From: Lachnospiraceae bacterium
GTDB lineage: Bacteria; Bacillota; Clostridia; Lachnospirales; Lachnospiraceae
NCBI GenBank assembly: GCA_024684215.1
Contig: JAIKXH010000161.1
Coordinates: 7,789 to 71,788 of the forward strand
DNA length: 64,000 nt
Reading direction: 5' to 3'
Shown: positions 2,467-40,743 of the stretch, piece after piece
Layout of the letters: each line of letters begins with the position of its first letter
How positions within the stretch are numbered: the stretch's first letter is position 1
The notes under the pieces: model-generated
Seen by the model: the letters and a program-made list of their open reading frames with translations, nothing else
What the model was told of the DNA's origin: nothing
The model's database searches: none
Made by a program: the position numbers and the translations under genes

Positions 2467-2469
2467 TGG

Positions 2470-10382: not shown

Positions 10383-10403
10383 AATGCTACTCCTTGTTTG
10401 CTA

Positions 10404-22906: not shown

Positions 22907-22964
22907 CCAATCATTTTAATTAAATGTAACCCTAAAAGTTACTTATGCCCATTTTGTAATTAAA

Positions 22965-24995
22965 TTACTCTACTGAAAGAAGCTCTACATAGCTTGCTTC
23001 GTTGGTGAAGAAGAAGTACATCTCTGAATCAGCAGCCATGTTGCCGTTCTTAAGAACATAGCTCTCCGTTAATGAATCACCGGTCTTCTTGCTGGTGTAA
23101 GTCATATCAAGAGTTACTTCTCCGCCGTTTCTGGTAGCTACGATTTCAACATCAGCAGCCTTCATGATATTTCTGAAGTTGTTATCGCCGATGTACTTTG
23201 TTCCGATGTTGTAGCAATCAGGTGCTGCATTAGCGTCACCTTCGGGAGCGCCCCAGCCCCATCCGTCTGCACGAACTACTGCGTACTCCATGTACTCTCC
23301 GGGGAACTGATCGGCAGGTGCTGAGTGAGCTACGGTTTCCTTGTTGGTAAGTACCATTACGAAGTTGTGGTAATCTTCCTTACCGGTGCTGTAGTTGTTG
23401 AGCTTGATGGTCTTGGTCTCGCCATCCTTAATTGCGTATGCATCAGTCCAGTCTGACCAGAAGCCACAGGTAAGATCGATGTTTCCGATAGCGCTTAATG
23501 CGTTCTCGTCTACAGCAATAGGATCGTTGATCTCAAGGATTTCGATGTAGCAATGCTCACCGAGAATAGTTACATAGAGGTCATCTGCATCTGTAAGAGC
23601 AGTCTGCTTTACAGTGTAGGTCATAAGGTTAGACTCACCATTGTAGTCTACGTTGTCAGCTACGACGTTGATAGCACTTCCGTTTCTGGTAATCTTAAGA
23701 GTTACGGTTGCGTCTACCATTACGCTCTGCTGCCATACGGGCCAGTTGCCCCAAGAGTGAGTAGACTCGAAGTAGTCTGCTGCATTCTCTGAATCAGGAT
23801 TGATATCTCCGATCCATGCCCACTCATCAGCTCTTACTACTACATACTCAGTGTTTCCTTCTACAGTGTTAGGATCTACATGAGCCTCGTGAGGCTGATT
23901 GGTGAAGTCAAGAACATAGTTCTCATAAGCGTTTCCGCCTGCTGAGTAGTTCTTTAATACGATAGTCTTGGTCTCGCCGTCCTTAAGAGGAATAGCTGAT
24001 GACCAGTCTGACCAGAATGCCATTGAAAGATCGTCAGTACCAACAGTCTCAAGTGCTGCTTCGTTCTTTACAATCTCAACAACTCTCTCGGGAGCCTCAA
24101 ACTTAGCTGTGGTGTCTCCTGCCTCAAAGAGTGCTTTAGCCTCTGCTGCAGTGAGTACACGGTCATATACATATACTTCGTCGAATACGCCCTTGAAAGG
24201 AGTATCCCAATAGTTTACGCCGAGAAGGAAGTCAAAGTTGTCTGAAGGAGTCATGGTTCCGGTTACAACCTGTACAGGTCTGTCTCCGTCGCTGCTGGTT
24301 CCGATAACTTCCTCACCGTTTAAGTAAAGGTGAGCGATAATCATAGATCCGTCTGCAGATACTTCGCTGGGATCAACAGTCATGGTAATGTTTAACCACT
24401 CACCGGTACGGTTGTCAATCCAATCGGGATACCAATACATACGATCTCCTCCGGTTGCCTGATCATAAGACCAAACAATAGGGAAGGTTGTCTTTGTAGT
24501 ATCATCGGGGTTAAAAGGCTCCCAGGTAAAGTTTACCCAGTGCTCTTTGCCGGTAGCATCACCGTGTACATCAGGACCATACTGAAGAGTAGGCATATGC
24601 TGTGCGTTTCTTGAAGAGTACATCCAGTATGAAACTGAATAAGTATCTCCTACACCGTTTACATCAAGCTTAGCGCCTGCTGTACCGTCAAGGTAAAGTC
24701 CCTGACCCTTAGCACCGGTAACATATACGGGATCTTTGCCGGTAAGCTCGATAGTAGCACCGTCACCCTTTGTTGCCATGTGTACGCCTTCTTCGCCGCC
24801 GTCAAGTGAGAAATAATACTTGTAATCGGTAGGGATTTCGGCAGTTTCTGCTGCAGGCTCTTCTGTTGCCGCAGGTTCTTCTACTGCAGGCTCTGCTGTG
24901 GGCTCTGCAGGGGTCTCTTCTTTAGCACATCCGGCAAGAACTGCAGCTGCCATTACGCCTGTAAGAAGAAGACTTAAAAACTTCTTTTTCATCAT
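22965..24995 (-). CDS. surface lipoprotein: P/E/A/T linker + LamG-like jelly-roll + two tandem ~180-aa repeat domains
   Basis: 676-aa ORF with lipobox LAGCAKE. The LamG-like region runs YFSLDGG..LYLDG..YSVSYWMY..VFDEVYVYDRVLTAAEAKALF. Two paralogous modules share FWSDW..KDGETKTI..NY..EY.VVRAD.W.W. Confidence 0.7.
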   Translation of the reverse strand: MMKKKFLSLLLTGVMAAAVLAGCAKEETPAEPTAEPAVEEPAATEEPAAETAEIPTDYKYYFSLDGGEEGVHMATKGDGATIELTGKDPVYVTGAKGQGLYLDGTAGAKLDVNGVGDTYSVSYWMYSSRNAQHMPTLQYGPDVHGDATGKEHWVNFTWEPFNPDDTTKTTFPIVWSYDQATGGDRMYWYPDWIDNRTGEWLNITMTVDPSEVSADGSMIIAHLYLNGEEVIGTSSDGDRPVQVVTGTMTPSDNFDFLLGVNYWDTPFKGVFDEVYVYDRVLTAAEAKALFEAGDTTAKFEAPERVVEIVKNEAALETVGTDDLSMAFWSDWSSAIPLKDGETKTIVLKNYSAGGNAYENYVLDFTNQPHEAHVDPNTVEGNTEYVVVRADEWAWIGDINPDSENAADYFESTHSWGNWPVWQQSVMVDATVTLKITRNGSAINVVADNVDYNGESNLMTYTVKQTALTDADDLYVTILGEHCYIEILEINDPIAVDENALSAIGNIDLTCGFWSDWTDAYAIKDGETKTIKLNNYSTGKEDYHNFVMVLTNKETVAHSAPADQFPGEYMEYAVVRADGWGWGAPEGDANAAPDCYNIGTKYIGDNNFRNIMKAADVEIVATRNGGEVTLDMTYTSKKTGDSLTESYVLKNGNMAADSEMYFFFTNEASYVELLSVE

Positions 24996-25073: not shown

Positions 25074-26597
25074 TTACTTTCCGAATGAATCTACTGTTGC
25101 CTGATAGGTTGCGAGCTCTTCATCAGAGAGTACATCGTATCCTGAAGGTCCAAAGTAAGAAATCATTGCCTCAGCATGGTAGTAGTTAGCCTGCTCACTT
25201 GCCTCAGCTGCATAGTCAGCGGGATGTGCTGTACCTGCATCTACGAGATCGTGAATACCGATCTTGTTGAAGTACTGATCGCAGAAGTTCCAATATCCGG
25301 CGATGTTATACCAGCCGTAAGGAACAGGTCTTGTGATAGATGCGAAATAATCATCCCAGTACATCTTGTGCTCCTCATCCTGAGGGAACATAGCCTTGTA
25401 TCTCTCCCATACACCTTCATCGGTGGTCATGGGAACAGGCATGTTAGCATGCTTAAGAGCGGTGCCTGAAGCGTTTGTGATGCTCTCATCCTCGTAAATA
25501 TCAAGACGAGCGTTCCATCCTTCAGTTCCGATACCCATCCACTTAAGAAGGAGATATGCCTCGTAAGGATGCTCGGTGCTGGATGAAATACCACCCATGT
25601 ACATGTTTGCAATGATGTTGTGTTCCTTCTCATCTACAACATTAGGAGTTACATAGGGAACGATATCAAGTCCGTACTGCTCCTGATAACCATCGGTTCC
25701 CCAAAGGTTCATGTATGACCAGAATCCTTCTGAGAAGATAGCTACATGTCCGGTAGCACCAAACCATGTTCCCCAGTCGCCGGACCAGTCTTCCATAGCC
25801 TGAGTATCCTGCTGAGGAGCTACATATCCGTTTACTTTAAGGTTACCGAACTCTTCCTCACCGATTGCCCAATATCTAAGGTCGAAGTCGGTTCCGTCAA
25901 ATCCGAACTCACCCTTGATTGCACGCTCTGCGGTAGCGCAGGCAGCGATTCCGTAAAGTGAGTCAAGACGGTTGTAGTATCCAAGTCCGTAGTACTTCAT
26001 TCCGGTACGATCATCAACGGTTGCGTCCTTGATGAGCTGAATCATCTCATCCCATGTCCAGTCGGTTCTGGGCATCTCAAGGTTTAACTTGTTGATTACG
26101 TTACGGTCGATGAAAATTGCACTGGGCTGATACCATACAGGCATTGCATACCAGTGATCTGTATCGAACTTACCGATACCGTAGTTCTTGATTGAGTAGA
26201 GCATCTGATCCATATCGGGATCGTTCTCTACGTACTCAGTGATGTCTGCCCAATACATATTTGCAAGAGCGGTGTCTGAGTCTGTAGCACAGAATGCATC
26301 AGGGAAATTTCCTGCTGCTGCAGCTGCTGAAAGGTCGGTTGACATATCAGTGATCTGCTTGGTCTCTACCGTGATGTTGGGGTACTTTTTCATGAAAGCT
26401 TCCGCCAAAAGATTCATGGTAGTCTCATCCTCATAGTGCCAATATGTAAGGGTGATGTTGTCGGTAGTTACACCGTTCTCATCAACTCCACCGGTGGATC
26501 CGCCGGCGCTTCCGCCGTTACCACCGCTACAGCCTACAAGAAGGGTAGCTGCCATAGCCACTGAAAGAAGAGTAGCTACAATTTTGTTCTTTTTCAT
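25074..26597 (-). CDS. extracellular sugar-binding lipoprotein (large family-1 SBP, LplA/LipO-like size class)
   Basis: 507-aa ORF with lipobox LLVGCSGG and a Gly/Ser linker. The SBP_bac_1-like body is rich in Trp and Tyr. Confidence 0.85.
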   Translation of the reverse strand: MKKNKIVATLLSVAMAATLLVGCSGGNGGSAGGSTGGVDENGVTTDNITLTYWHYEDETTMNLLAEAFMKKYPNITVETKQITDMSTDLSAAAAAGNFPDAFCATDSDTALANMYWADITEYVENDPDMDQMLYSIKNYGIGKFDTDHWYAMPVWYQPSAIFIDRNVINKLNLEMPRTDWTWDEMIQLIKDATVDDRTGMKYYGLGYYNRLDSLYGIAACATAERAIKGEFGFDGTDFDLRYWAIGEEEFGNLKVNGYVAPQQDTQAMEDWSGDWGTWFGATGHVAIFSEGFWSYMNLWGTDGYQEQYGLDIVPYVTPNVVDEKEHNIIANMYMGGISSSTEHPYEAYLLLKWMGIGTEGWNARLDIYEDESITNASGTALKHANMPVPMTTDEGVWERYKAMFPQDEEHKMYWDDYFASITRPVPYGWYNIAGYWNFCDQYFNKIGIHDLVDAGTAHPADYAAEASEQANYYHAEAMISYFGPSGYDVLSDEELATYQATVDSFGK

Positions 26598-26706: not shown

Positions 26707-27714
26707 TTATTCACCGGTGATTCCGGCTCTGTCGATACTTTCAACGAATTGCTTCTGGAGTATCAGATACATTACCAGCAAAGGCAAAATACTTATAGTC
26801 GTCGCCGCCATTCTCACCGATTCATTTAAGCTTGTTGCGGTATCACCAACGGTTGCTCTGTTCTCAAAGGATGTATCGAAGTTTTTAAGCTGTACAACCA
26901 GGTTGGTCCATACACTCTTTGCAGATAATCCCTGTACGTAAAGTTCTGTCAAATATGACTCATTCCAGTACCATACAAATGAGAACAGAACTACGGTAAC
27001 GATAGCCGGTATAGCTGAAGGAACCGCTATTCTGAAGAAGGTCTTGAAATGGCCGGCTCCGTCGATTGCCGCAGCCTCAGTCAGTACCTTAGGTATCTGC
27101 TTGAAGAACTGATAGAAAATCAGTATGAATATCGGTGCGTTTAATCCGTTACCGAATATTGCCGGTATTATAAAGGTGAACAAAGTGCCGAGGATCTTCA
27201 TATTGTTGTAAAGCACATAGGTCGGTATCATAGTTACCTGACTTGGCAGGATATATGAGAATATAAGAAGTCCCATCATTATCTTTTTGCCCTTAAAGTC
27301 ATATCTTGCAAATCCGTAACCAACCATCATGCAGATAACTATATTTATGAGTGTGGGGAGACCTGCTATAGCTATTCCTTTTAGGAAACTCATAACAAAG
27401 TCCATTGATTTTCCCGCATCAATATAGTTTTGAATATAAAAGCTTCCGGGCAACCACTTTACCGAAGTATCAAGGAGGTCATCCCTGCTCATAAAGCTTG
27501 TGCTTACCATATAAAGCATGGGGTAAAGATAAACAAATCCGATACAGATGAGCAGTGCATATATCACTATCATCTTTCCGACGCCTTGTTTTTCTCTGGT
27601 ACCAAAGATGAAACGGTGGAGCTTTTCTTTGGTGAAAACTTTTTTAATAGTCGCCACGGCCGTCGTAGGTCTTGTAGCGGTGGCTGCGTCTTGCGCGCTG
27701 GAGTTTCCTCTCAT
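26707..27714 (-). CDS. carbohydrate ABC permease (MalG/LplC-like)
   Basis: 335-aa ORF with EAA loop LTEAAAIDGAGHFKTFFRIAVP. The start is ambiguous: ATG 27714 overlaps the upstream gene by 71 nt, and the next ATG is at 27573. Confidence 0.8.
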   Translation of the reverse strand: MRGNSSAQDAATATRPTTAVATIKKVFTKEKLHRFIFGTREKQGVGKMIVIYALLICIGFVYLYPMLYMVSTSFMSRDDLLDTSVKWLPGSFYIQNYIDAGKSMDFVMSFLKGIAIAGLPTLINIVICMMVGYGFARYDFKGKKIMMGLLIFSYILPSQVTMIPTYVLYNNMKILGTLFTFIIPAIFGNGLNAPIFILIFYQFFKQIPKVLTEAAAIDGAGHFKTFFRIAVPSAIPAIVTVVLFSFVWYWNESYLTELYVQGLSAKSVWTNLVVQLKNFDTSFENRATVGDTATSLNESVRMAATTISILPLLVMYLILQKQFVESIDRAGITGE

Positions 27715-28738
27715 TTCTTATGCTCCTCCTTTCTATCTTCTTTGATAATCTCTCTTCTCTCTTAAGCATTCTCTTTCTCTTGGCAACCATTCTGTCATAG
27801 ACATCGTGCTTGTTTCCGAGTATTAAGAAGAAGAGTAAAACAATCAGTGTAACTACTATCGAGTACATCCAGGCCATTGCGGATGCATATCCGTAACCCT
27901 TCTCCTTTGTACCTGAGAACATTGCGCTTTTAATCATATTGATAAGTTCGTTTTGTTCGTTGCTCGATAGGAATATTACTGTGTAAACAGCATTTAAAAG
28001 TATGAAGTTTTTTATTGTAGGAAGTGTGATCTTCCAGAAGCATTCCCAACCGGAACCACCGTCGATCTTTGCCGCTTCGTAAAGCGATGGGTCAACCTTT
28101 TGCAGTGCCGAGAGGAATATAAGGATCTGCACTCCGGAATACCAGAGAACCATGATCATATTTCCGAAAAGTTCACCGATGGATGTCGCCATCTTTGTCG
28201 GTAGGAAGCTGTCGAGCGCATTTATTACCGCCTGAGTGTTCATGGCGGGGATTGTCGATGCTCCCTCGCTCACAAGCATGTTCATAACCGGTCCGCTTAC
28301 GATGATTACGGGCAAGAAGAAGATTAGTCTGAAAAATCCTTTCATCTTGATCTTTCCGTTAAGCATCATAGCAATCATAAGCGCGAATACTACGATTATC
28401 GGAACCTCTACTATCGTCTGCCAGATATAGGTTACCAGCTGTTGTGGAAACTCAGGGTTTTCCAGCCAGATCTGTGTGAAGTTACCGGTTCCTACAAAGT
28501 TGAACTTTGTTCCCAAAGGAGTAATCCTGATGTTGTACCACATGTAGTAAAAGGACTGTCCTAACGGAATCAGAACAAATATCAGTGTTCCGATGATCCA
28601 GGGAAGAACAAAGAAGTAACCCATTCTGGCTTCACGGGCTTCGAGCTTTCCTCGTTTTACCTTAACCCTCTTTTGCTTCTTATCCTCTTTTGTGGGAACC
28701 GAGTTATTAAATTTTTCCTGATTTAAATTTTCGCTCAT
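27644..28738 (-). CDS. carbohydrate ABC permease (MalF/LplB-like) with ~50-aa highly basic C-terminal tail
   Basis: 364-aa ORF with EAA loop YEAAKIDGGSGWECFWKITLP and tail KRKRMLKREERLSKKIERRSIRNERKLQRARRSHRYK. Its ATG overlaps the upstream stop by 1 nt (TAATG). Confidence 0.85.
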   Translation of the reverse strand: MSENLNQEKFNNSVPTKEDKKQKRVKVKRGKLEAREARMGYFFVLPWIIGTLIFVLIPLGQSFYYMWYNIRITPLGTKFNFVGTGNFTQIWLENPEFPQQLVTYIWQTIVEVPIIVVFALMIAMMLNGKIKMKGFFRLIFFLPVIIVSGPVMNMLVSEGASTIPAMNTQAVINALDSFLPTKMATSIGELFGNMIMVLWYSGVQILIFLSALQKVDPSLYEAAKIDGGSGWECFWKITLPTIKNFILLNAVYTVIFLSSNEQNELINMIKSAMFSGTKEKGYGYASAMAWMYSIVVTLIVLLFFLILGNKHDVYDRMVAKRKRMLKREERLSKKIERRSIRNERKLQRARRSHRYKTYDGRGDY

Positions 28739-30945
28739 TACCCATCTACCTCATAGGACATCGCACCAATGGTTATTCCATCTACGACCTGTTCTTTGGA
28801 GCTGTAGTTTACATATACCTTAACGCCGTTTGAATAAGTAACCTTTGTCACTCCGCAATCCAAAATCTCATGATTTTCTATATTTGCGGTGCCAAGCTTT
28901 TCGTTTAGCGCCTTTAACTCTTCGTTATACTTCTTGATCGTTTCTTTATAAGAAGAATATTCCGAGCTGTAAATATCACTTGAGTTTGTATAAATAAGTT
29001 CTGAGGAACTTTCCTTTGTAATGTAGAAGGAAGGATAAGATCCGCTCTCTATCATCTTTAGGAAGAATTCCTGCTTGTTGGCCTCAAAGTTAACATACTG
29101 TGCATATACCGGAATGCTTCCCTTTAATACCATGCTCAAGAAAGGTACGCTCTCATCTTCGAAGATATATGAAGATGTGTATAACGGCATATCGAGGAAT
29201 GCATTCGTATCAGCCCAGAGATATGCAAAAGGCTGTTCCATAACAAGATTCGTCTTATTCTTTATGGTATTTGCTGTGCTTAAGTATGATTCCTGTGTGT
29301 CAAACCTTGTGTAATTTGAGCCACTGTAGTTATAAGAGAAAAGAGTGTTTGTAATTCCCGCAAGTGCCAGGTTATTTACATTCTTTGATGTATAACTCTT
29401 TACAAATCTCGAAAGGAGCACGTCGGTTCTTGTAGGTGTGATGTAAAGGAAGTTTTCATATACATCCATGTATGTTTTTAGTTCAAATTTTCTCTTATTG
29501 ATCTTTTTAACCACGTTGAAAGTTGCATTCTTTTCATCGGGGTTTATAAGTAATGCGTTGTTGTATAAGTAGAAATCAATTCCTTTGCTTTCGGCATCGT
29601 TTATAAGGCTTGTAAGTCTGGCTTTTCCCCCTATCTTAGGCTCTACACTATAGTAGCTTATGGGCAGGTTATACAGGCCGCCTTTCTGCCATCCCTTGTA
29701 AACTGTGAAAATATCGGTCACATTTTCGGCTGCAAGCTCATCGTATATTTCATAGATATCATCTATGGTTGTCATCACAACCGCTGTGGTTCCAAGAACC
29801 CAGCTTTCTCTCTCTGTTCCAAGGAAATCAATTCTTGTGTTGTATGACGTATCCGCTGCTTTTAAAAGTCCGCCGGCCAACAGGTAGTTTCTGTATGCCT
29901 TGGCCATTCCGGAGTAACTTGCTTCTTCACCTGAGAGGAACAAATATCTTACTCTTAAGTCAGAGTGGCTTCGCTCAGATTCAAAAATGTGAAGCGAACC
30001 GGCAGTTGAATTGTTACTTGTGGGCTGAGTATATGCTTTTCTAAGTAAAAACTTTGCATATGCTCTGTTGTAATCTACCGATACTCCGTTGGGAATACAC
30101 TCTATTGAAGCTCTCGCTTCTCCGTCTTCGACAACTGCGAGATAAGCGATTTCATCATCCGTATGTGCTATTCCGAATATCGGTGCTATAACCTGCTCAG
30201 ATTCGGAAATCGTATTGTATCTGTCCTTTAAAAGAGTAGTTACATCGGATTCATCAAATCCTACATCGGTTCCGTATATAAATCCGGAAAATCCGCTCTT
30301 AAATCTTCCCTCTTTATCATTCAGATGAATAAGCGCTCCGTTTCCGTCAGGAACCAGGATGTATCCTTCTTTTTCATCGAGATATGAGTTTCCCATGTAG
30401 GGATAAAGGGCTATAGTTCCTATGTAGTAGCTCTCACCGTCTTCTACAATGCTTTCATCCGGAATATTCGCCACAAGGCCGTCATCGGTAAGTATAACCT
30501 CTAAGGTCATTCCGAATTTGTATTTTGTCCAGTAGAGCTTTGCTACAAAGCCTTTATCACTGTATGTGATATCCTTTTTTACATCATCGTTTATAAGATC
30601 GGCCTGCTGGGTATCATCGTTTCCGTTTATCATCGTGATAACGATAGCAGACTTCATTGCCCCAATCCAGCTGGCGTTATTTTTTCCATCGTCATAGCTG
30701 ATGGCCGAATCCATATAAGCTCCGGTATCCTTATCCTCTACTACAAGGGAGAGATCCTCTTCCTTCATGTAGAGACGGTACTTGGTGCTCTCTGCTACAA
30801 AAGCGTGCCCGTCGATTTCCGTAGCAGCTTCCGCAGCAGAGGCGATTCCAAGACCAAAGGGGAGGGTTGTGTTCGGCACCGCACTTACCACCAGCGCGGA
30901 TACCAGGAGAGATGTTATTATTTTAGCTATTTTTTTATGAGCCAA
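28738..30945 (-). CDS. large N-terminally anchored/secreted protein of unknown function (possibly DUF5696-like)
   Basis: 735-aa ORF with an N-terminal hydrophobic signal/anchor (IITSLLVSALVVSAV). I recognised no catalytic motif by eye. It overlaps both neighbouring genes (11 nt and 1 nt). Confidence 0.6.
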   Translation of the reverse strand: MAHKKIAKIITSLLVSALVVSAVPNTTLPFGLGIASAAEAATEIDGHAFVAESTKYRLYMKEEDLSLVVEDKDTGAYMDSAISYDDGKNNASWIGAMKSAIVITMINGNDDTQQADLINDDVKKDITYSDKGFVAKLYWTKYKFGMTLEVILTDDGLVANIPDESIVEDGESYYIGTIALYPYMGNSYLDEKEGYILVPDGNGALIHLNDKEGRFKSGFSGFIYGTDVGFDESDVTTLLKDRYNTISESEQVIAPIFGIAHTDDEIAYLAVVEDGEARASIECIPNGVSVDYNRAYAKFLLRKAYTQPTSNNSTAGSLHIFESERSHSDLRVRYLFLSGEEASYSGMAKAYRNYLLAGGLLKAADTSYNTRIDFLGTERESWVLGTTAVVMTTIDDIYEIYDELAAENVTDIFTVYKGWQKGGLYNLPISYYSVEPKIGGKARLTSLINDAESKGIDFYLYNNALLINPDEKNATFNVVKKINKRKFELKTYMDVYENFLYITPTRTDVLLSRFVKSYTSKNVNNLALAGITNTLFSYNYSGSNYTRFDTQESYLSTANTIKNKTNLVMEQPFAYLWADTNAFLDMPLYTSSYIFEDESVPFLSMVLKGSIPVYAQYVNFEANKQEFFLKMIESGSYPSFYITKESSSELIYTNSSDIYSSEYSSYKETIKKYNEELKALNEKLGTANIENHEILDCGVTKVTYSNGVKVYVNYSSKEQVVDGITIGAMSYEVDG

Positions 30946-32989
30946 TTCTATACACCACCTCTCCGATTATCGACTGCAGGAAGTCAAATACCTGCGACCA
31001 AAGTACATAAATAATAAATATAAGCAGCGCTACTATCAGGATCGTAAATATTGTAAGAAGAATTATCTTTACAGTTTCAAGAGCCGAATAGTTGTTGATT
31101 TCCTGAATACCAATAAATACAAGAACCGCTATCCATACCCACATGCAGATCGTTCCAAACTGTACGAAGAAGATTTCGTTGTTGGAAACAACATGTGAAA
31201 GAATGAAAATTATCGGTGTAAGTATCAGGTACGGTGAAAATGAATAAATAAGTGTGCAATAAATATCCTTAAATCTTCCTTCACCGTCGTTGATCGTACA
31301 CATCAGGTAGTTGCACGATACAACCGCAATCAGCGCTATAAGTATCATTCCTATATCGGACAGCACATCGAACTGTCCTTCTCTGACGGTCTTTGTAAGG
31401 AAACCGCAGAAATATTTGTTTATGATGTAAAATACTATTCCGACTACAAGAATAATGTTTGCGGATAATACCGAAACTCTTCCTTCGCGCTTAATTCCGT
31501 AGCTTCCGTCTATAGGATGTCTCATAAAGTAGAACATGTATCTTAACTGCTTTATAAGTTTTACTTCTCCTATCTTTGCAAAAAATGCCTTGGGCTTGTC
31601 CAGAATATGTTTCTTTTTATTTAAAACCTTTATAACTGTAACCGCGATAACTATAACGATTATCACTATCGCTATCCAGGTAAGATTTTTCTTGAGCCAT
31701 ACATTTCTTATTTCCCAGAACGCATCGGAATAACCTTCACTGTCTTTTGCAATTCTGGCATAGCTGAGGGCTCCCTCGTAGTCGCCTTCTTTATAAAGTG
31801 CCTTTCCCATTGCCATGTTGGCATATGTGAAGAGGTTGTTCATCTCAAGTACTTTTCCGAAGGGAACTTTACTTTCTTCGTAGCGTCCCTTTGAGAAAAG
31901 GAAGAGTGCGCTGTGAAGATATGATGTAAACTCTGTAGGCTCAAATACCTGGATCTGGGCCATCTCGGAATCCAGTAAATAAATCTTGTCATCAAGACCT
32001 ATCTGAATTGCTTCGACCTTTGTCGAAAGTCCGATTCTTTGTTTTCCGTCATCGCTTCCGCCAAACATGAAGAGCAGGTCGCCTTCGTTGTTGTACTCGT
32101 AAATAAATCCTGTCTGAGTTGCAACAAATACGTTATCATGGTTTCCTGCCGCCACCGCTGCCGGGATATCGGGGAAATCGGTGGTCTCTATCATATTTAC
32201 TCCGGCAATATTGAGTCTTTTTAAGGTATCAAGAGCCTCACCTCTTGTTATGGTATAGATGACACCTTTCTCATCTATAGCCATATTGTCGGGAGTTGAA
32301 GGGATATTTGACTGCATCTTTGCACGCTGTGCATCTGTGAGAACCGCTCTCCAGATAACCGTCCAAAGGTTTGCCTTTGTGGCATTGGTACCGAAGTATC
32401 CAAGGAATGTACCGTCTTCAACAGGGCTTATCTGTACTATACCGTTTGTGTTGGACTCGCAGATTGCATATATGGTTCCGGATTTGTTAACCACAACCTT
32501 TAAAGGCAGGAAATCCTGGGTTTCGCCATACATGGCTTCCGTGGGCTTGGTATATGTATCGATAAGGTTTCCGTCTTTATCAAATACGAAAATCGCACTC
32601 GCATCTCTGTCGGCAACATATGTTGTTAAATCCCTTGTAACATATATACCTCTGGGGCCTACAAGAGTTCCCTCGCCGAATGTTCTTACAAGTTCACCGG
32701 CCATATCAGATACAACAACTCTCTTGTTACCGCTGTCCAATATATAAATGAATTCGTCATTCACTATGGTAAAGTCGGTAGGTGTGAGAAGCGTTTCATC
32801 TCCGATTTTTGTAATTGTCTCGTACGGAAGGTATGCTGTTTGAGTTTCCGTAACAGATCCATATCCATCAACCGTATATGTTTTGTAGGGGGCATCCGCA
32901 AACGCCGTTGCATTGCTGCCTGCAAAAACGACTCCCGCAATCACAATCGGCAGTATGGATTTGATTATTTTTTTAATCCTGTTTTTCAC
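30935..32989 (-). CDS. NHL-repeat beta-propeller + TPR-like + Yip1-like multi-pass membrane fusion protein
   Basis: 684-aa ORF with a signal peptide (..FAGSNATAFA). NHL-like blades include YILDSGNKRVVVSD, YVADRDASAIFVFDKDGN and IYLLDSEMAQIQVFE. A TPR-like segment (ALYKEGDYEGALSYARIA) is followed by a TM helix and about five more TM segments. Confidence 0.65.
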   Translation of the reverse strand: MKNRIKKIIKSILPIVIAGVVFAGSNATAFADAPYKTYTVDGYGSVTETQTAYLPYETITKIGDETLLTPTDFTIVNDEFIYILDSGNKRVVVSDMAGELVRTFGEGTLVGPRGIYVTRDLTTYVADRDASAIFVFDKDGNLIDTYTKPTEAMYGETQDFLPLKVVVNKSGTIYAICESNTNGIVQISPVEDGTFLGYFGTNATKANLWTVIWRAVLTDAQRAKMQSNIPSTPDNMAIDEKGVIYTITRGEALDTLKRLNIAGVNMIETTDFPDIPAAVAAGNHDNVFVATQTGFIYEYNNEGDLLFMFGGSDDGKQRIGLSTKVEAIQIGLDDKIYLLDSEMAQIQVFEPTEFTSYLHSALFLFSKGRYEESKVPFGKVLEMNNLFTYANMAMGKALYKEGDYEGALSYARIAKDSEGYSDAFWEIRNVWLKKNLTWIAIVIIVIVIAVTVIKVLNKKKHILDKPKAFFAKIGEVKLIKQLRYMFYFMRHPIDGSYGIKREGRVSVLSANIILVVGIVFYIINKYFCGFLTKTVREGQFDVLSDIGMILIALIAVVSCNYLMCTINDGEGRFKDIYCTLIYSFSPYLILTPIIFILSHVVSNNEIFFVQFGTICMWVWIAVLVFIGIQEINNYSALETVKIILLTIFTILIVALLIFIIYVLWSQVFDFLQSIIGEVVYRIGS

Positions 32990-33008
32990 TTTGCTACCTC
33001 TTTAATGA

Positions 33009-33884
33009 TTACTTGATACCGGAATGTGCCATGGTGTTCATGACGTTCTTTTGCAGTATGCAGAACAAAATCAGGTTGGGCAGGAACATAATAAGCGATG
33101 CAGCTGCTGCAATTCCTTGACCTGCGACAGTGTTGGTGGTTGTCGTTGAAGTAAGTGTGTTCATGTAAAATGCAAGTGCTTTTATCGAGTCATCGTTTAC
33201 GTAGTAATTGGATGTCTCCAAATTGTTCCAAACCTGCTGGAACACCAGAATTGCCGCAGTGGCAATCGCAGGTTTGATCAGCGGTAATATAACCTTTAAA
33301 TAAATCTGCCATTCCTTCGCTCCGTCCATGTACGCCGCTTCAATAAGTGAATCGGGTACCTGGTCGACAAACTGTTTAATAAGGAACAGTCCTACGGGAA
33401 GCGCAATAAGAGGAAGAATTTCCGCCCAGTATGTATCAATCATTCCGAGCTTATTAACAACCAGGTATCTGGGAATCATAACCGCAACGGATACGAACAT
33501 AAGCGCTATCTGGTTAATCTGCATCATTATCTTTGCGCCCTTAAATTTGATCTTTGAAAGAGCGTATGCAGCCATGGTCGAGAATAGAAGCGATCCGAAC
33601 ACAACCGCTATTGTAACGAAGATACTGTTGAAAAAGTACTTCGATAGAGGAATGCTTCCTGTTCTTGAAGCTTTGATCAGCTTTACGAAGTTATCGAGTG
33701 TCGGGTGAACCGTGATAAACTTCGGAGGGAAAGCGAAAAGCTCTTCCATAGGTTTAAATGCGTGGAAGATTATGAATATAATCGGCAGTCCGCAAAGAAG
33801 TACCATAGGAAGTACGAGCAGGTATATCTTTATCTGACCTTTTTCAAACTTGTCAGGGTTCATTCTGTGTCCCTTATATGCCAT
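33009..33884 (-). CDS. carbohydrate ABC permease (MalG-like)
   Basis: 291-aa ORF with six TM segments and EAA loop IEAAYMDGAKEWQIYLKVILP. Confidence 0.9.
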   Translation of the reverse strand: MAYKGHRMNPDKFEKGQIKIYLLVLPMVLLCGLPIIFIIFHAFKPMEELFAFPPKFITVHPTLDNFVKLIKASRTGSIPLSKYFFNSIFVTIAVVFGSLLFSTMAAYALSKIKFKGAKIMMQINQIALMFVSVAVMIPRYLVVNKLGMIDTYWAEILPLIALPVGLFLIKQFVDQVPDSLIEAAYMDGAKEWQIYLKVILPLIKPAIATAAILVFQQVWNNLETSNYYVNDDSIKALAFYMNTLTSTTTTNTVAGQGIAAAASLIMFLPNLILFCILQKNVMNTMAHSGIK

Positions 33885-33900
33885 TTCGTTACCTCCTTTC

Positions 33901-34806
33901 TCAATCCTTCTCGCCGAACAGCTTGGTTGATACCGAGCTGAATATCTGTACTATCAACAAAAGTATTACGGATACGGCTGCTGCATATCCCATCTCATAT
34001 CGGATAAATCCATAGTCCTCAATATGGTTTACAATGAGCTGTGCGGAATAACCCGGAGTAGGGTTTCCGGCAAGCATTGTAGCTATCGTACCGTTTTGGA
34101 AAGCTCCTACAATCTGCATAACCGCTGCGAAGAGCATCTGCGGCTTCATGCTGGGAATCGTTACATAAATCATTTCCTGGAACCTGTTCTTTACTCCGTC
34201 GATTGCTGCCGCTTCGTAGAGCGATTCGTCTACGTTTAACAGTCCGGCAAGTATTGAAAGGAATCCTACACCCATGCTGCTCCACAATCCGATGATGATA
34301 ACTATAGGAAGGAGGAACTGTGCATTATTAAGCCAGATGATCGGTTCGTTTATAAGTCCGATATCCATCAGCCAGCTGTTTAAGTATCCTGTCTGGTCTC
34401 CGGTGAAAAGTATCTTCCAAAGAACGCTCATCGCTACACCGGTTGTCATACTCGGCGAATAAAGAATGAGCGCGAATATGGTTCTCGGTACCTTAGGGAG
34501 GTTTGCAAGTCCAAACGCCAGGAGGAACGCCAGTACGTAACCTCCTACTCCGACTATAAGTGCATATTTGATGGTGTTCGGTAATACAAATTTCATAAAC
34601 ACATCATCGCTTGTAATAAGGTTGATATAGTTTAGAAATCCTACAAACTTCGGAAACTGAATTGCGTTGAAGTTTGTAAAGGACAGTATTACTGCCATCA
34701 CAACCGGCGCCAGTATAAATACTACGAAAAGCGCTGCATAGGGGAATACAAATATGTATCCGGCCTTGTTGTTATGCGATCTTTTTCCTACAGTTGATTT
34801 TGCCAT
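33901..34806 (-). CDS. carbohydrate ABC permease (MalF-like)
   Basis: 301-aa ORF with EAA loop [22 protein letters not shown]. Confidence 0.9.
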
Positions 34807-34817
34807 AGCTCTAACCC

Positions 34818-37799
34818 TTATTTACTCATTATCCTTCGAACCGTTTCTACATTAGGTGCAACATAAGGTTCGATTACATTTCCATCCGAATCCGTAAAGC
34901 CGAACTCAATGAGTTTTCTTTCGGTCTCACGACTTACGGTTTTAACCACTTCATCGATTCTGGATCTGATGCTGTCTCCGTTTACAACAACATCGTTATA
35001 TGCGTTTGAAAGTTCACGCTCCATCATGTAGCTTCCGGGAAGTCTGGGTGCCTCTAAGATATATGAGGACTGCTCCATGATGATGTTCTTATCCGATGTG
35101 GGATAAGGAAGCATTCCGAATGCTTCAATATTTGCGGTAGGCCAGATATACTCATCTCCGTAGAGGATCTGAAGTCTCTGTCCGAATTCAGCCTGCACCT
35201 CAGCTCTTGACCACCACTCGAGGAAGTCCCATGCTTTTTGTTCTCTTTCGGGTGTGGAATTAAACATCACCGAGCTTTCGGCACCGCCTGCCATGTATCT
35301 GTATATTTCTCCGGTCTCAGGGTCTTCAACTCCGGGTACCAACGTTATCGCCCATGAGTTTGCAATCTCGGGAGCCGCATTGAGAATGAGGTTGTAAGAG
35401 TTGAAGTCTGCAATTCCTATCGGCAAATCTCCGTTTCTGAAGTGCTGATAGAAGTTAGGTACATCAACAGGCAAATCATATAAGGTAAATAACTCTGTGA
35501 GCTGTGTAAAGCCTTCTACGGTTTCCTCACTGTCAACATTTATATCCATTGCAGTCTCGCCGTAAAGGCTTCCGCCGTTCTGGAAAATAAGAGGTGTGGT
35601 TCCGTGGAAGTTTCTCATTGCCGACATAGGTGCTGTCGGATAATACACGTTTAAGCCTCTCATCTGTAAGTCGGGGAGCATTGCGATGAGCTCATCCATT
35701 GTAGTGGGAGGCTCAAGTCCCAACTTGTTTAAAATATCTGTACGATAGAACATTACGTAGAAGTTCATGGTTTCGGGAAGTGAGTAGAATCCTTCTCCGA
35801 CTACGGAAGGAACCAAAAGACCATCCGAATACCTTCCGAATACTTCTTTGTAATTATCAAACTGAGTCATATCAACGAGAGCACCACGAATTGCAAGGTC
35901 ATAAGGAATTGAGTAGTTTATTCCTGTTGCAATATCGGGAGTGTCTCCTGATGCATTTGAAAGGATAAGTTTCTGTGCATCAGTCATGAGGCAAAGGTCT
36001 ACTTCAATTCCGGTTTCGGGAGTGAAGTCCTCATCGATCATCTTCTGCATGATCTCTACATATGTTCTCGGTCTGTTAACCCAAACCTGAATATGTTCCT
36101 CATTTGCATTGCTTGACGAATATGACTGTCCAAAGAATGAATTAAAGAATCTTGCTATGGACATTCCTGCGGCCTTAAACACATTTAATCCCCTGGGAAG
36201 TTTTGCGCCTTCCTGATAGATATAAATTCTGTCTATCGCGATGTCGTTATCGTTTATCAGGTCTACGAAGTTTGCTATCTGTGTGTTTACCGAGTTTGTA
36301 CTTGTTGAGAGTTCTCCTACTCTGTATACAAGCTCGTTGGGGTCTTCCGCCAGATCCTCAAGCTGTCTTGCTGCTATAAGTAAGTATGAGAAAGCAGCTA
36401 CTTTATCCGCGTCGTCGGTGTCTACATACTCTGTAGCCTTTTCAGCAAGTGCATATAACTCTTCGGTCCAGCCTTCAAGTCTTTCCTTTATGTCGGGAAT
36501 ATATCTTACGAGTCTTAAATCTCTGTATTTATCTGTGTTTGTTCCGGCAACCTTTGTAACTTCAAGTGAAAGGTCGCTTACACCGCTCATGATTTCATCT
36601 ACTTTTTCAAGAGCATAGCGTAAATTCTCTGCGCTGATAGTAAGTGAAACAGTGTGGGTACCGGGCTCTAAATATACGCTTAATTTATCGCCGTTCTCAT
36701 CCTCTAAAGTTCTGGTTTTAAAATTATTGTTTGCCTGCATTGGATAAGAATAAAATGCAGTGTTCGGGATTTCTCCGTCTACTTTCCAATCTATAAATAC
36801 CGGGAAGTCATTTTTCTCTGACTGGCGGTAGTTCATTCCTATGTAATAAAAACCTGCTTTTTCTACGTCAAACTGATATGTGACTGTCTGGCCGGCTTCA
36901 TTAAACGAATCCTCATCAGTGATATTAAGCACTGTCACCTTCGTGTTTAAAGGATTGATCTTTGATGAATATTCTCCGGTGGCATGAATTGAAGAGTCAT
37001 TTCTATAGTAGAAATCCTCCGCTTCAATTGTGATCAGTTCGCTTCCTTCTGCTTTTTCGGAGCCGGTATAATCAGCAATCTTTTTAGGTGCTTCAAGAGT
37101 AATATTTCCTATAAGCACCGTTCCTTCCTGAACAACAAACTCAAGCTCATGGGCACCCGCCTCAAGCTCTATGCCAAGGGGCTGTGAATAACGATAGCTG
37201 GAATCCATCGCATTCTTGTACTCCCATCTGATAAGATTATCGGGAAGTGCTACTATCTCATTTCCGTAGCGGTCTGTGTCAAGATTTTTTGAAATCCACG
37301 TGGTCTCAAAAACCATGCTTCGCGCTTCGTAAAAAGGATATTCGCCATCAATCATTATTCCAATCTCAACGGGAAGGATTGATGCATCATACGAAAGATA
37401 GTCAAGTCCCATCCAATATACAGCTGTCTCCGGGATATCAATCGTGACCTTGAAAGTATCTCCCGCTTTAACGGATGCAACCTTTGTTGAACCTTCATAA
37501 TCATAAGTATCATCTGTCAAAACGGAATCATCCGTTACGCAGTCAGCTATCACATAGCTTATCTGATCCTTTGAGTATTCCGGCGCTGTGTATCCGGCGC
37601 TGACACAAGTATAATTGGAGGTAAGTCTGTCTCCGATAGCATCTGTATCGAGAGATATAGCGAGGTTGTCGTTTACCTCTGCAGTTTCCTCGCCGACAGT
37701 ATCGGCAAAAGATGCCGAGCTGTTTGCCGAAACGCTTCCAATTACCATTGCTGTTGATATTAAGATTGATACTGATTTTTTAATCCTGTTGCGAAACAT
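34818..37799 (-). CDS. giant secreted solute-binding protein: two CBM-like beta-sandwich domains + helical linker + family-1 SBP domain, no lipobox
   Basis: 993-aa ORF with a Sec signal (..[12 protein letters not shown]) but no Cys until about residue 65. It has CBM6/35-like segments ([27 protein letters not shown]). The C-terminal ~450 aa is SBP-like (PDIATG..; WAITLVPG). Confidence 0.75.
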
Positions 37800-37820: not shown

Positions 37821-37852
37821 CGGGCTCAGCTCATCACTGAGCCCGCTTTTTA
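37821..37852 (+). terminator. stem-loop whose U-tract is on the plus (antisense) strand, between two minus-strand genes
   Basis: Perfect 9-bp stem cgggctcag / ctgagcccg with a 7-nt loop, followed by ctttttaatttgctttttt on the plus strand. On the minus strand the hairpin is followed by aaacgtaagg, with no U-tract. Confidence 0.5.
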
Positions 37853-37862: not shown

Positions 37863-39365
37863 TTATACGGTTACTTCGAGATGAAGAACGCTGCTTGCAG
37901 GAATCTTGAACTTAATCTTTCCATCCTTGAAGCTTACGTCTTCGAATTTGTTTACCTTAACGGTATTGGGCTTTGCAAAAGTATTGTGAGAATGGATCTC
38001 ACCGCCTACTATCTCGCCCTTAACGCTCTTTATCTTTGTGTCTGCAATCTCACCATCGATTGAATATGCCTTCTTAATAGAAAGATTGGTAACGGTGATG
38101 TGAATCTTTCCGTCCTTTCCGATTGAAACAGATTCGGTAAGGTTGGGAACCATGTTCTGGTCCTCAAGTCCGATTTCCTCGGTTTCAATGAAGCTATCGA
38201 TAAGTTCTGCATCCTGATGGTGTTTGTACATATTGAATACATGATAGGTAGGAGTCTTAATCATCTTATCTCCGTCTGTCAGTATCACTGCCTGAAGTAC
38301 GTTAACCATCTGAGCGATATTTGCCATTCTGACTCTGTCGCAATGCTTATTGAAGATATTAAGGTTAATACCTGCAACAAGTGCATCGCGGATTGTGTTC
38401 TGCTGATAGAGGAATCCGGGGTTGGTGCCGGGCTCGCAATCGAACCAGGTTCCCCACTCATCTACGATAAGTCCGACTTTACCCTGCTTATCATACTTGT
38501 CAAGGATTGCTGCGTGATGATTGATGAGGTCTTCCATGTAAAGAGTTTTCTTTAATGTCTGATACCACATCTTGTCATCAAACTCGGTGGCACTTCCCTT
38601 GTTCTCCCATCCGCCCGGATGAGTATAATAATGAAGGCTTATACCGTCCATAAATCCGTGGAGGAATTCGGGTGCTGCAAAGCAGGTCTTAAGCACTCCT
38701 TCCATCCAGTTGTAATCATCTACGTTAGGTCCGCAGGCGATTTTGAAAATAGGAGCATCGGGCTTATAGTTTCTAACATAAGTCTGATATCTGCGGTAAA
38801 GGTTTCCGTAGTATTCGGGGGTCATGTTACCGCCGCATCCCCAGTTCTCATTTCCGACTCCAAAGAAATCTACTTTCCAGGAATCTTTGCTTCCGTTCTT
38901 TTTTCTAAGGTCTGCCATGGGTGATACGCCTTCAAAGGTCATATACTCAACCCATTCGCTCATCTCCTGAACAGTTCCGCTTCCTACATTACCGTTAACG
39001 TAGGTTTTGCATCCAAGCTGCTTAGCCAGCTCCATGAATTCGTGTGTACCGAAGCTGTTGTCCTCTACGACTCCGCCCCAGTGAGTGTTTATCATCTTTT
39101 TACGATTCTTCTTTGGGCCGATACCGTCTTTCCAATGATATTCATCTGCGAAGCATCCGCCGGGCCAGCGAAGTACCGGTATCTTAATTTCTTTAAGTGC
39201 CTTAACGACATCTTTTCTCATTCCGTTCACATTAGGAATCTTTGAATCCTCGCCAACATATATACCTTCGTAAATACATCTTCCGAGATGTTCTGAAAAG
39301 TGTCCCTGGATTTCAGGATTGATATGTCCTTTCTTGTTTTTAGGATTAATGTAGAATTTAGTCAT
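37863..39365 (-). CDS. abfA: GH51 alpha-L-arabinofuranosidase (intracellular)
   Basis: 500-aa ORF with acid/base context [12 protein letters not shown] and nucleophile context [10 protein letters not shown]. There is no signal peptide. Confidence 0.9.
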
Positions 39366-39744: not shown

Positions 39745-40743
39745 ATGTTTCGCTTAAGTATTGAATTATGTGTTTGTATAGCATATTTAACTAAAGAGTA
39801 TAAGAAAAGGGGAAAAGGCGTGCTTTACTTTAATTCATTAAGCGAAGCAGAAGAAGTCTTTAAGGCATTGAGCGCTCCCATGCGTCTTCGCATTATGGAA
39901 CTTATCAGCGAAAACGACAATATGAGTATGAATGACCTTGCCGAGACTTTGGAGCTTACAAACAGTGCGATCTCTATGCATGTTAGCAAGCTTGAGAGCG
40001 CCGGGCTGGTTGCAATTCAAACCACCTCCGGAAAGCGCGGCATCATGAAGGTTGTAAGGCCCAGGCATGAACGTCTTATAGTAGACATGAACAGTGCCGG
40101 TGGCAAATCAGCAAGAAATTGCTACAGCGATGATATTTCAATCGGTCATTACACAAATGTTGAGGTTCATCCCACCTGCGGATTATCTACCTCCGGCAAT
40201 CTTATAGGAGACCTGGACAATCCTAAGGTTTTCTCTTATCCCGAAAGATTCAAAGCCGATATTTTATGGATCGGACACGGATTCGTTACTTATAACTTTC
40301 CTAACCGTTTAAAACCCGGTCAGCGGCTTACTGAAATACAGGTCTCTTTTGAAATCTGTTCCGAATGCCCTGAATTCAATGATGATTATCCCAGCGATAT
40401 CTATTTTGACATAAATTCACACCCCCTTGGAAAATGGATAAGCCCCGGCGATTTTGGAAACAGAAGGGGAATGCTGGTTCCCAACTGGTGGCCCGATATG
40501 CTTAATCAGTATGGGTTGTTAAAAACCCTCATTATAAATAATGCCGGCACTTTTATGGATGGAACCCATAAGCTTTCCTCCACAACGATTGCCGACCTTG
40601 GTATTGATTACAACAGTAATATAGACTTCACTTTCTCCGTACCCGAGGACACCGCAAACTGCGGCGGCCTTACATTATTCGGAGAGACATTCGGAGATTA
40701 CAGCCAAAACATCCAGGTAAAGCTTTATTACGAAGAAGCATAA
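39745..40743 (+). CDS. ArsR-family winged-helix regulator with ~230-aa C-terminal domain of unknown function
   Basis: The ORF has the HTH LSAPMRLRIMELISENDNMSMNDLAETLELTNSAISMHVSKLESAGLV. The likely real start is GTG 39820, preceded by AAAAGGGGAAAAGG, because the first 25 codons are hydrophobic junk-like. Confidence 0.75.
   Translation: MFRLSIELCVCIAYLTKEYKKRGKGVLYFNSLSEAEEVFKALSAPMRLRIMELISENDNMSMNDLAETLELTNSAISMHVSKLESAGLVAIQTTSGKRGIMKVVRPRHERLIVDMNSAGGKSARNCYSDDISIGHYTNVEVHPTCGLSTSGNLIGDLDNPKVFSYPERFKADILWIGHGFVTYNFPNRLKPGQRLTEIQVSFEICSECPEFNDDYPSDIYFDINSHPLGKWISPGDFGNRRGMLVPNWWPDMLNQYGLLKTLIINNAGTFMDGTHKLSSTTIADLGIDYNSNIDFTFSVPEDTANCGGLTLFGETFGDYSQNIQVKLYYEEA

Follow-up and report, generated by a model that had tools for sequence, protein, structure and literature searches.

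The ATP-binding cassette (ABC) importers AraNPQ and AbnEFJ of Bacillus and Geobacillus comprise a lipoprotein solute-binding protein (SBP) and two CUT1 permeases, encoded near glycoside hydrolase (GH) genes of families GH43 and GH51 and near ara genes, with the ATPase supplied in trans. To our knowledge, each is a single importer that lacks a giant SBP with carbohydrate-binding modules (CBMs), a Yip1 protein and a DUF5696 protein. On a larger scale, the Gram-positive polysaccharide utilisation loci (gpPULs) described from Roseburia and Eubacterium rectale include arabinan and arabinoxylan loci with GH43 and GH51 genes (Sheridan et al. 2016, PMC5320581). A separate precedent concerns membrane proteins of the Yip1 family, one of which, YknW, modulates assembly of the Bacillus ABC exporter YknXYZ (PMC4887032) and was the sole precedent found in a search of the literature on bacterial Yip1 proteins. 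Some Lachnospiraceae, for example Roseburia, Agathobacter and Butyrivibrio, are major fibre fermenters of the gut and rumen, and far less is understood about how they capture and import polymers, having no outer membrane, than about the Sus paradigm of the Bacteroidetes. Here, we examine a 64,000-nucleotide stretch from a Lachnospiraceae bacterium (assembly GCA_024684215.1, contig JAIKXH010000161.1, positions 7,789 to 71,788 of the forward strand; the whole stretch is hereafter called the window), which contains a cassette of seven core genes and an associated eighth, encoding a giant SBP, two permease pairs (F1/G1 and F2/G2), a membrane protein with NHL, tetratricopeptide repeat (TPR) and Yip1 regions, a DUF5696 protein and an ordinary lipoprotein SBP. 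With moderate confidence, we interpret its two CUT1-type importers and two extracytoplasmic accessory proteins as the conserved core of a Gram-positive glycan-utilisation locus.

Gene content and conservation of the cassette

An earlier note, made from this DNA alone, had grouped five of these genes into a surface module: the giant SBP, the first permease pair, the NHL/TPR-Yip1 protein and a 735-aa anchored protein. All five open reading frames (ORFs) are listed on the minus strand at exactly the position that it gave, and the ORF coordinates reproduce the tight packing that it described: the first three gaps measure 11, 16 and 19 nt, and the fourth junction is an overlap of 11 nt. The further overlap that it reported, between the stop of the 735-aa gene and the start of the next permease gene, is visible in the sequence at the junction GGGTAATGAGC, where the DUF5696 stop codon and the F2 ATG share one base (TAATG), while at the preceding junction the TTG start of the DUF5696 gene sits over the TAA stop of the Yip1 gene. 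The three non-permease products total 2,412 aa (993 + 684 + 735), and translations and hydropathy give all three of them signal-peptide-like N-termini, in line with the export signals that had been claimed. The five genes are grouped as described, but the unit that is conserved elsewhere is larger, comprising seven or eight genes, as it adds the permease pair F2/G2 downstream and usually the 507-aa SBP. Its core order is giant SBP, F1, G1, NHL/TPR-Yip1, DUF5696, F2 and G2, usually accompanied by a lipoprotein SBP of ~500 aa.

Related genomes were sampled by scanning one genome per GTDB species with two narrow DUF5696 motifs, a scan that identified a DUF5696 relative in at least 334 species. 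The 80 best of these loci, all of Lachnospiraceae type and with DUF5696 proteins 53–79% identical to that of the window, were examined by tblastn with twelve window proteins. Wherever the contig was long enough, a single order was found: GH51, giant SBP, F1, G1, NHL-Yip1, DUF5696, F2, G2, SBP, a Laminin_G_3 (LamG) protein, GH43 and GH43. The NHL-Yip1 gene lies directly upstream of DUF5696, and an orthologue of the 507-aa SBP comes after G2, in every long-enough locus, and GH51 lies upstream of the cassette in most of them. In addition, the record of one Lachnospiraceae metagenome-assembled genome contains an identical DUF5696 protein, and two paralogous cassettes (~46% identity) occur as stand-alone sets of eight genes, each beside a GH43 gene and one also with a regulator gene. 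Cluster look-ups for DUF5696 yielded little taxonomy beyond the Lachnospiraceae and Paenibacillus.

Two distant copies were found by tblastn among plasmid records, one in Paenibacillus cellulosilyticus (DUF5696 24% identity) and one on pNP243 of Butyrivibrio fibrisolvens (28%). For both, the independent RefSeq annotation lists an 'extracellular solute-binding protein' of ~980 aa, two permeases, a YIP1 family protein, a DUF5696 protein and two more permeases. The junctions of the Paenibacillus cassette are 4-nt overlaps, and a ugpC ATPase gene lies directly upstream. On the same plasmid (locus L081, 16189–25412), four LLM-class flavin oxidoreductases, an NADPH-dependent oxidoreductase and two more SBPs are encoded after the cassette, surroundings that are odd for a glycan importer. 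In the Butyrivibrio copy, separate NHL and YIP1 genes replace the fused Yip1 gene, and a GH43 enzyme, two more SBPs and a two-component system (histidine kinase and response regulator) are encoded nearby. Plasmid searches with the Paenibacillus DUF5696 protein returned no further copies, and those with its Yip1 protein returned mostly unrelated NHL propellers, together with an unannotated Brevibacillus match.

A metagenome scan seeded with a 10-sequence alignment led by the Paenibacillus protein yielded 80 loci (25–66% identity, GC content 31–62%), whose six-frame ORFs were searched with hidden Markov models (HMMs) built from five annotated cassettes; only loci with enough flanking sequence were scored. 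The Yip1 gene lies directly upstream of DUF5696 in 61 of 63 loci, the two exceptions being a locus with a frameshifted DUF5696 and one in which only the NHL part was detected. An F-type and a G-type permease lie directly downstream in 63 of 63, making the second pair the most constant partner of DUF5696; as the permease HMMs would also match unrelated CUT1 permeases, this count and those that follow show adjacency and the separation of the pairs, not exclusivity. The giant SBP with F and G was found upstream in 41 of 45 loci, downstream instead in one, and was absent from three, all of which have DUF5696 variants of ~960 aa. An SBP of ~500 aa flanks the cassette in 31 of the 80 loci, and the cassette genes of each locus lie on a single strand. 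At the Yip1/DUF5696/F2 junctions, start/stop overlaps or gaps of at most 4 nt recur in independently annotated loci. Regarding individual arrangements, the giant-SBP trio comes after the second permease pair at loci L152 and L161, and no such trio lies within 10 kb upstream at L103, L154 and L155.

Across the 32 complete loci, the identity matrices of all seven components correlate with one another (Spearman 0.63–0.91), which is consistent with a cassette that has long been inherited together as a unit. The recurrence of this gene combination in Paenibacillus and Clostridia, which the earlier note had stated, is borne out by the 80 species loci, the two plasmid copies and the metagenome loci, and in the synteny check that it proposed, over 150 loci of distantly related hosts share one gene order.

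Properties of the cassette proteins

All four permeases match BPD_transp_1 (PF00528) above the cut-off (G2 with E 1.8e-18), and EAA motifs can be read in each translation (F1, YEAAAIDG; G1, IEAAYMDG; F2, YEAAKIDG; G2, TEAAAIDG). Type I (CUT1) importers are recognised by two EAA-bearing permeases per importer, a family-1 SBP and an ABC ATPase; the first two features were found here, the SBPs as SBP_bac_8/1 domains in the 993-aa and 507-aa proteins. By NCBIfam-type similarity, F1 weakly resembles UgpA/GlcT, and G1 resembles UgpE/MalG. For all 115 F-type and all 115 G-type sequences compared, the nearest neighbour belongs to the same class (pair 1 or pair 2), with a mean identity of 0.49/0.36 within classes versus 0.22 between them, and the two pairs are anciently distinct. 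The 507-aa lipoprotein SBP is the presumed partner of pair 2. F2 ends in a K/R-rich cytoplasmic tail of ~55 aa (…KRKRMLKREERLSKKIERRSIRNERKLQRARRSHRYK…), whose coding region is overlapped by the longest G2 ORF over 71 nt (27644–27714); a comparable F2/G2 overlap of 47 nt is called at locus L084. A role of the cassette in export or exopolysaccharide assembly was considered and rejected, as BPD_transp_1 permeases with SBPs are importers.

The label 'CBM-SBP', previously given to the 993-aa protein, is reasonable. Its PDB sequence matches are sugar SBPs, and an AlphaFold2 (AF2) model of residues 30–585, N-terminal to the SBP domain (mean predicted local distance difference test score, pLDDT, 69.5), consists of two beta-sandwiches and a long helical bundle, for which Foldseek returned tandem CBM51, CBM22, CBM6 and CBM35 modules. 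Similarly, a profile of 40 diverse N-terminal regions matches the CBM35 of cycloisomaltooligosaccharide glucanotransferase (CITase; E 5.6e-11) and, weakly, other CBM35 and CBM6 domains, with coiled coils matched at positions ~376–448. Pfam recognises CBM_35 in 10 and CBM_6 in 3 of these 40 homologous regions, while the window protein falls below the cut-off (CBM_35, 16.7 bits versus 28). The giant SBP is thereby predicted to carry two CBM6/35-like modules and a helical segment ahead of its SBP domain. It has a signal of the signal peptidase I type without a lipobox cysteine, and a lipobox is likewise rare among its orthologues (1 of 50 and 5 of 47) but common among homologues of the small SBP (59 of 69 and 25 of 31), a contrast that is large even though N-termini were picked crudely for these counts. 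A lipobox is also usual in the LamG protein and the large GH43.

The 735-aa protein, assigned to the DUF5696 type in the earlier note, is indeed a full-length match to this Pfam family (PF18952; E 1.2e-175, 586 bits versus a cut-off of 25.6), with residues 124–731 covering profile positions 2–612 of 612. The family is large: at E<=1e-3 it comprises 4,829 clusters (50% identity), and almost every full-length protein in the 150 top-scoring cluster representatives has 700–870 aa. N-termini throughout the family resemble signal anchors or signal peptides. The 735-aa protein had been described as having no assigned function. That stands in so far as no studied function exists: the literature searched contained no paper that mentions DUF5696 or the module, and NCBIfam has no names for the three non-permease proteins. 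It does not stand for the fold, which is recognisably GH129-like. The AF2 model (predicted template modelling score 0.78, pLDDT 70) comprises a beta-sandwich, a (beta/alpha)8 barrel and a C-terminal beta-sandwich, and its top eleven Foldseek matches in the PDB are all GH129 (E 3e-28 to 1e-19, TM-scores 0.62–0.70), led by ZgGH129 (5opq/8rzk; E 3e-28, TM-scores 0.62/0.68) and including NagBb (E 3e-21), with GH101, GH97, GH36 and GH31 next. Pairwise and shallow-profile searches against PDB sequences found nothing, and when 55 diverse members were scanned with Pfam at E<=1, neither a second family nor any GH family was matched. A profile built from the same 55 members, however, matches ZgGH129 (E 5e-7; collinear over four segments) and NagBb (E 3.5e-6), with GH129 chains spanning 5e-7 to 7e-6. 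As this link emerges only with a diverse profile, and not from pairwise, shallow-profile or Pfam searches, DUF5696 appears from its sequence to be a remote homologue of GH129 and not a member of that family.

Carboxylates are conserved throughout DUF5696 at E168 (96%), D200 (100% D/E), D/E373, D/E378 and D/E633; in addition, an acid occurs at 598 or 599 just before an invariant VPF, and N619 is invariant. Conserved loop motifs include GYxFxPDGxGALI, YG.D.G and Y.QPT, with the strongest conservation in loops of the N-domain. Most of these residues either follow predicted barrel strands or lie on two N-domain loops, which suggests a functional pocket at the usual face of the barrel, a placement derived from secondary-structure positions only. 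A variant subfamily of ~950–1,080 aa, with an N-terminal insertion of 200–300 aa, occurs at loci L103, L154, L155, L106, L126, L158 and L160. The idea that this insertion contributes an extra CBM in place of the giant SBP was discarded, as Pfam found no domain in it.

For the 684-aa protein, Pfam and PDB matches agree with the NHL, TPR and Yip1 families that had been guessed for it. Pfam reports NHL and Yip1 (PF04893; 46.9 bits versus a cut-off of 28.6, residues 489–657), and PDB sequences match NHL propellers at residues 63–203 and TPRs at residues 362–435. Hydropathy places a signal peptide at 5–23, an ectodomain of ~400 aa extending to 437, a transmembrane (TM) helix at 438–456, a K/R-rich loop at 457–504 (13 K+R in 48 residues) and five Yip1 TM helices at 505–660. 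We propose that this protein is a membrane scaffold. A minority of cassettes encode the NHL/TPR ectodomain, together with its TM helix, and the Yip1 domain in two neighbouring genes (L082, 9189–11284; L108, L112, L117, L124, L125, L127, L132, L136, L137, L141, L148, L153 and L157), indicating that the two halves can work as separate polypeptides.

Flanking genes, regulation and likely substrate

The features of the locus are listed in Table 1. The GH51 gene lies 63 nt upstream of the giant SBP gene and is ArfA-like in NCBIfam, below the equivalog cut-off. At the other end of the cassette, the LamG lipoprotein, a candidate surface glycan binder in which the block '...FWSDW...KDGETKTI.LKNYS...' occurs twice, is the most variable of the conserved neighbours (26–84% identity, one or, often, two copies, across the 80 related loci). 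It is the last gene before a strong terminator-like hairpin that likely marks the 3' end of the transcription unit. Two GH43 genes, for arabinan/arabinoxylan enzymes, are kept downstream in the related genome loci; like GH51 and the LamG gene, they are specific to this lineage. The region beyond the hairpin in the window holds three GH43 genes in all, an FGGY kinase, araA and a transaldolase.

Table 1 Position of the cassette genes and of neighbouring features in the window (nucleotides, except where residues are stated).
Feature	Position	Strand	Description
Giant SBP gene	34818-37799	minus	993 aa
SBP domain of giant SBP	residues ~583-874		Pfam SBP_bac_8/1, sole Pfam-matched region
Permease F1 gene	33901-34806	minus	301 aa, MalF/UgpA-like ABC importer
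Permease G1 gene	33009-33884	minus	291 aa, MalG/UgpE-like ABC importer
NHL/TPR-Yip1 gene	30935-32989	minus	684 aa
DUF5696 gene	28738-30945	minus	735 aa, TTG start
Permease F2 gene	27644-28738	minus	364 aa, K/R-rich C-terminal tail
Permease G2 gene	26707-27714	minus	335 aa as longest ORF
Lipoprotein sugar SBP gene	25074-26597	minus	507 aa, lipobox LLVGC, SBP_bac_8
Laminin_G_3 lipoprotein	22965-24995	minus	676 aa, lipobox LAGC, two internal repeats
Terminator-like hairpin	22874-22908	minus	14-bp stem, 9 G-C pairs, T-rich tail
GH43 gene, cytoplasmic	21762-22808	minus	
GH43 gene, lipoprotein	19687-21684	minus	with GH43_C
GH51 alpha-L-arabinofuranosidase	37863-39365	minus	Alpha-L-AF_C; no signal peptide
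ArsR/MarR-type winged-helix regulator	39745-40743	plus	332 aa, HTH_5/HTH_24, divergent

With GH51, GH43, araA and kinase genes around the cassette in this genome and in 80 relatives, the substrate here is likely an arabinose-rich polymer (arabinan or arabinoxylan). The arabinose-glycan context drawn by the earlier note therefore holds for this lineage, but it does not make the cassette arabinan-specific. When 112 ORFs beside the metagenome cassettes were assigned to Pfam families, about a fifth were GHs, and these belonged to varied families; the counts were 10 for extra SBPs, 7 for the PF10091 'Glycoamylase', 6 for AraC regulators, 4–5 for LacI regulators, 3 each for GH3 and ABC_tran, and 2 each for GH10, GH32, GH35, GH51 and GH16. 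Some cassettes elsewhere lie beside GH144-like genes and some beside no genes for carbohydrate-active enzymes (CAZymes). This variability of the flanking GHs suggests that the cassette is a portable core and not an arabinan-specific device.

The divergent ArsR/MarR-type protein is probably the regulator of the locus. It was found in 52 of the genome loci at 63–87% identity, nearly always upstream of the cassette and divergently oriented, and also beside one of the paralogous cassettes (L085, 43% identity). Its C-terminal ~230 aa, to which no family could be assigned, probably form a ligand domain. The neighbouring 571-aa ORF (40910–42625, minus strand) resembles a methyl-accepting chemotaxis protein by eye and probably lies outside the system, as no homologue was found in the related loci.

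Several other features of the window were recorded. Between the GH51 and giant SBP genes, a hairpin at 37821–37845 has a perfect, G+C-rich 9-bp stem. It was rejected as a minus-strand terminator, as its T-run is on the plus strand; it could instead affect RNA processing or stability, or stop read-through on the plus strand. An ORF of 161 aa (19176–19661, minus strand), which begins 25 nt after the GH43 lipoprotein gene, encodes a hydrophobic core with charged termini and has no Pfam match. Elsewhere in the window, an iron-siderophore-type ABC system (FecCD/Peripla_BP_2; 804–3561, minus strand) and an NMT1/sulfonate-type ABC system (7546–11414, minus strand), the latter beside a Cys/Met pyridoxal phosphate (PLP) enzyme gene, are unrelated to the cassette.

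Proposed role, alternatives and relation to known systems

Every step of the mechanism that we propose is inferred, including the association of the proteins in one complex, the substrate and a catalytic role for DUF5696. Importer 1 (F1/G1) would be served by the non-lipidated 993-aa SBP, whose CBM modules would catch a polymer or long oligosaccharide at the cell surface, and importer 2 (F2/G2) by the ordinary lipoprotein SBP. The Yip1 protein would tether the anchor-less giant SBP and DUF5696 beside the permeases, by way of its TM domain and its TPR/NHL ectodomain, and DUF5696 would bind the captured chain and probably trim it or hand it over. The two importers may then take up two different classes of product, both powered by an MsmK/UgpC-type ATPase encoded elsewhere, and in this lineage cytoplasmic GH51 and GH43, together with araA and the kinase, would complete the breakdown to L-arabinose metabolism. 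In its strongest form, this scheme would unite the seven core proteins in one surface machine, representing a novel multi-component class of glycan importers in bacteria with a single membrane, in which a Yip1 scaffold with an NHL/TPR ectodomain docks two different ABC importers, the CBM-bearing SBP, which has no lipid anchor, and a catalytically divergent GH129-derived ectoprotein that cleaves or feeds the chain. We regard this stronger form as possible but rather doubtful; if it were true, the cassette would represent a monoderm counterpart of the SusCD 'utilisome', with a plug-in core for many substrates.

Several observations weigh against the interpretation of the cassette as a glycan-utilisation core. 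Pair 1 is unusually conserved (~0.5 identity, versus 0.27 for DUF5696) across loci with different flanking GHs, which fits poorly with a substrate that changes from locus to locus. A Pfam scan of part of the window ORFs found no ATPase gene in or beside the cassette, and the sole ABC_tran gene among the scanned ORFs (7546–8319) belongs to the NMT1-type system; Firmicutes commonly encode such ATPases in trans. On the Paenibacillus plasmid, the neighbours of the cassette are flavin oxidoreductases instead of CAZymes. The AF2 models are of medium confidence (pLDDT ~70), with the most conserved DUF5696 loops modelled at low confidence, and the physical complex of the cassette proteins is itself conjectural. 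In addition, DUF5696 may not be an enzyme, as the nucleophile Asp of GH129 is not conserved and no acid/base residue could be mapped. In the profile alignment, Asn533 of the window protein aligns with the D486N position of 8rzk, the mutated residue being D486 of ZgGH129, which we take to be the catalytic nucleophile. Among 49 orthologues the residues at this position are N38/D4/S4, and among the 55 diverse members they are N16/S14/Y6/A4/D3, so that Asn occupies the position in 38 of the 49 and Asp in only 3 of the 55 family-wide, although the alignment near D486 sits at a HMMER domain edge and could be off by a few residues.

This last point leads to the possibility, to which we assign a minor but real share, that DUF5696 is a non-catalytic pseudo-glycosidase serving as a glycan-binding or hand-over adaptor or as a structural lid at the importers, with the flanking GHs performing all cleavage. 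The absence of a family-wide Asp at Asn533 would fit such a role, as would the position right after predicted beta4, which is also not conserved as an acid, the failure of any of the 55 members to match a GH family in Pfam at E<=1, and the company of many GH families, which suits a substrate-agnostic accessory protein. However, several carboxylates are retained family-wide (E168, D200, D/E373, D/E378, 598/599 and D/E633), the conserved residues cluster after barrel strands in an active-site-like manner, and the D486 alignment could be misplaced by a few residues. Moreover, GH97 includes both retaining and inverting enzymes, between which the beta4 position differs, so the loss of one Asp is no proof that DUF5696 is inactive. 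The conservation pattern fits either an altered catalytic mechanism or a binding-only role, and cannot decide between them. A further reading, which we consider unlikely, dispenses with a supercomplex altogether and sees in the operon a set of independent parts, namely two ordinary importers, a secreted enzyme and a membrane protein of unrelated role, grouped by co-regulation and by selection for co-transfer. Several transporters and enzymes per operon are indeed common in gpPULs as described (PMC5320581), but the gene order itself is near-invariant down to ~25% identity and across a GC content of 31–62%, start/stop overlaps recur at the Yip1/DUF5696/F2 junctions, and another ABC transporter has a Yip1 assembly factor (YknW, PMC4887032). 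The giant SBP and DUF5696 also usually lack a lipid anchor, so that a tether would be needed.

It is quite improbable, in our judgement, that the giant SBP and the NHL/TPR-Yip1 protein act mainly as a sensing device (transceptor) that reports to a regulator while bulk uptake is left to the second importer only. NHL propellers are extracellular sensor domains in PknD-type kinases, which are present among the sequence matches, the Butyrivibrio copy adjoins a histidine kinase and response regulator, and pair 1 is more conserved than would be expected of a substrate-specific importer. Against this, Pfam and NCBIfam found no signalling output domain (kinase, GGDEF or HTH) in any cassette protein, the neighbouring regulators vary by locus (ArsR-type, AraC, LacI, two-component), and the EAA coupling motifs of F1 and G1 are intact. 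The chance that the grouping is a mere juxtaposition, or an artefact of annotation, is practically negligible and is refuted by the synteny, given an order shared by over 150 loci of distantly related hosts.

The cassette is very common, and its almost invariant architecture includes three signature proteins, none of which has a studied function. Defining it would give a role to a large DUF family, would possibly add a new GH family or a GH129-related class of pseudo-GHs, would provide a second functional context for bacterial Yip1 proteins besides YknW, and would allow one class of Gram-positive glycan-uptake loci to be recognised in genomes. As cultured carriers exist (Paenibacillus cellulosilyticus KACC 14175 and Butyrivibrio fibrisolvens D1), the cassette is directly testable.

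The general function, carbohydrate uptake, is unsurprising, and the invariant core of giant SBP, Yip1 protein, DUF5696 and dual importer was not found in the literature searched. Like the gpPULs (PMC5320581), the window locus is a Lachnospiraceae locus in which GHs, ABC sugar transporters and a regulator are co-located, and by the gpPUL criteria as paraphrased from that source it fits the concept, with GH51 and three GH43 genes, two ABC importers and a divergent ArsR-type regulator. The idea that the module is a Gram-positive analogue of a Sus-like system is not new, being already covered by the published gpPUL concept. The gpPULs are described there by their content of GHs and carbohydrate esterases, transporters and regulators, a description in which no fixed core of giant SBP, Yip1, DUF5696 and dual permeases figures, whereas the cassette described here is one defined, invariant and portable sub-unit that recurs with differing sets of GHs.

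At the level of single components, DUF5696 has a three-domain architecture in common with GH129 (the alpha-N-acetylgalactosaminidase NagBb and the 3,6-anhydro-D-galactosidase ZgGH129) and, more distantly, with GH101; unlike GH129, it has Asn, Ser, Tyr or Ala at the D486 position and always lies beside permeases and a Yip1 gene. The YknWXYZ system (PMC4887032) resembles the cassette in that a Yip1 membrane protein is encoded together with an ABC transporter, for whose assembly YknW is needed. However, YknYZ, which works with a membrane-fusion protein, is an exporter of the MacB type, and YknW is without a large ectodomain, whereas the cassette encodes type I sugar importers and a Yip1 protein with an NHL and TPR ectodomain of ~400 aa. 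Finally, unlike the Sus-like systems of Bacteroidetes, the cassette would operate through ABC importers without an outer membrane and without homologous components (no families of the pair SusC, the TonB-dependent transporter, and SusD were present among the locus proteins scanned), but it would follow the same logic, in which surface capture, surface processing and oligosaccharide import are all encoded by one locus.

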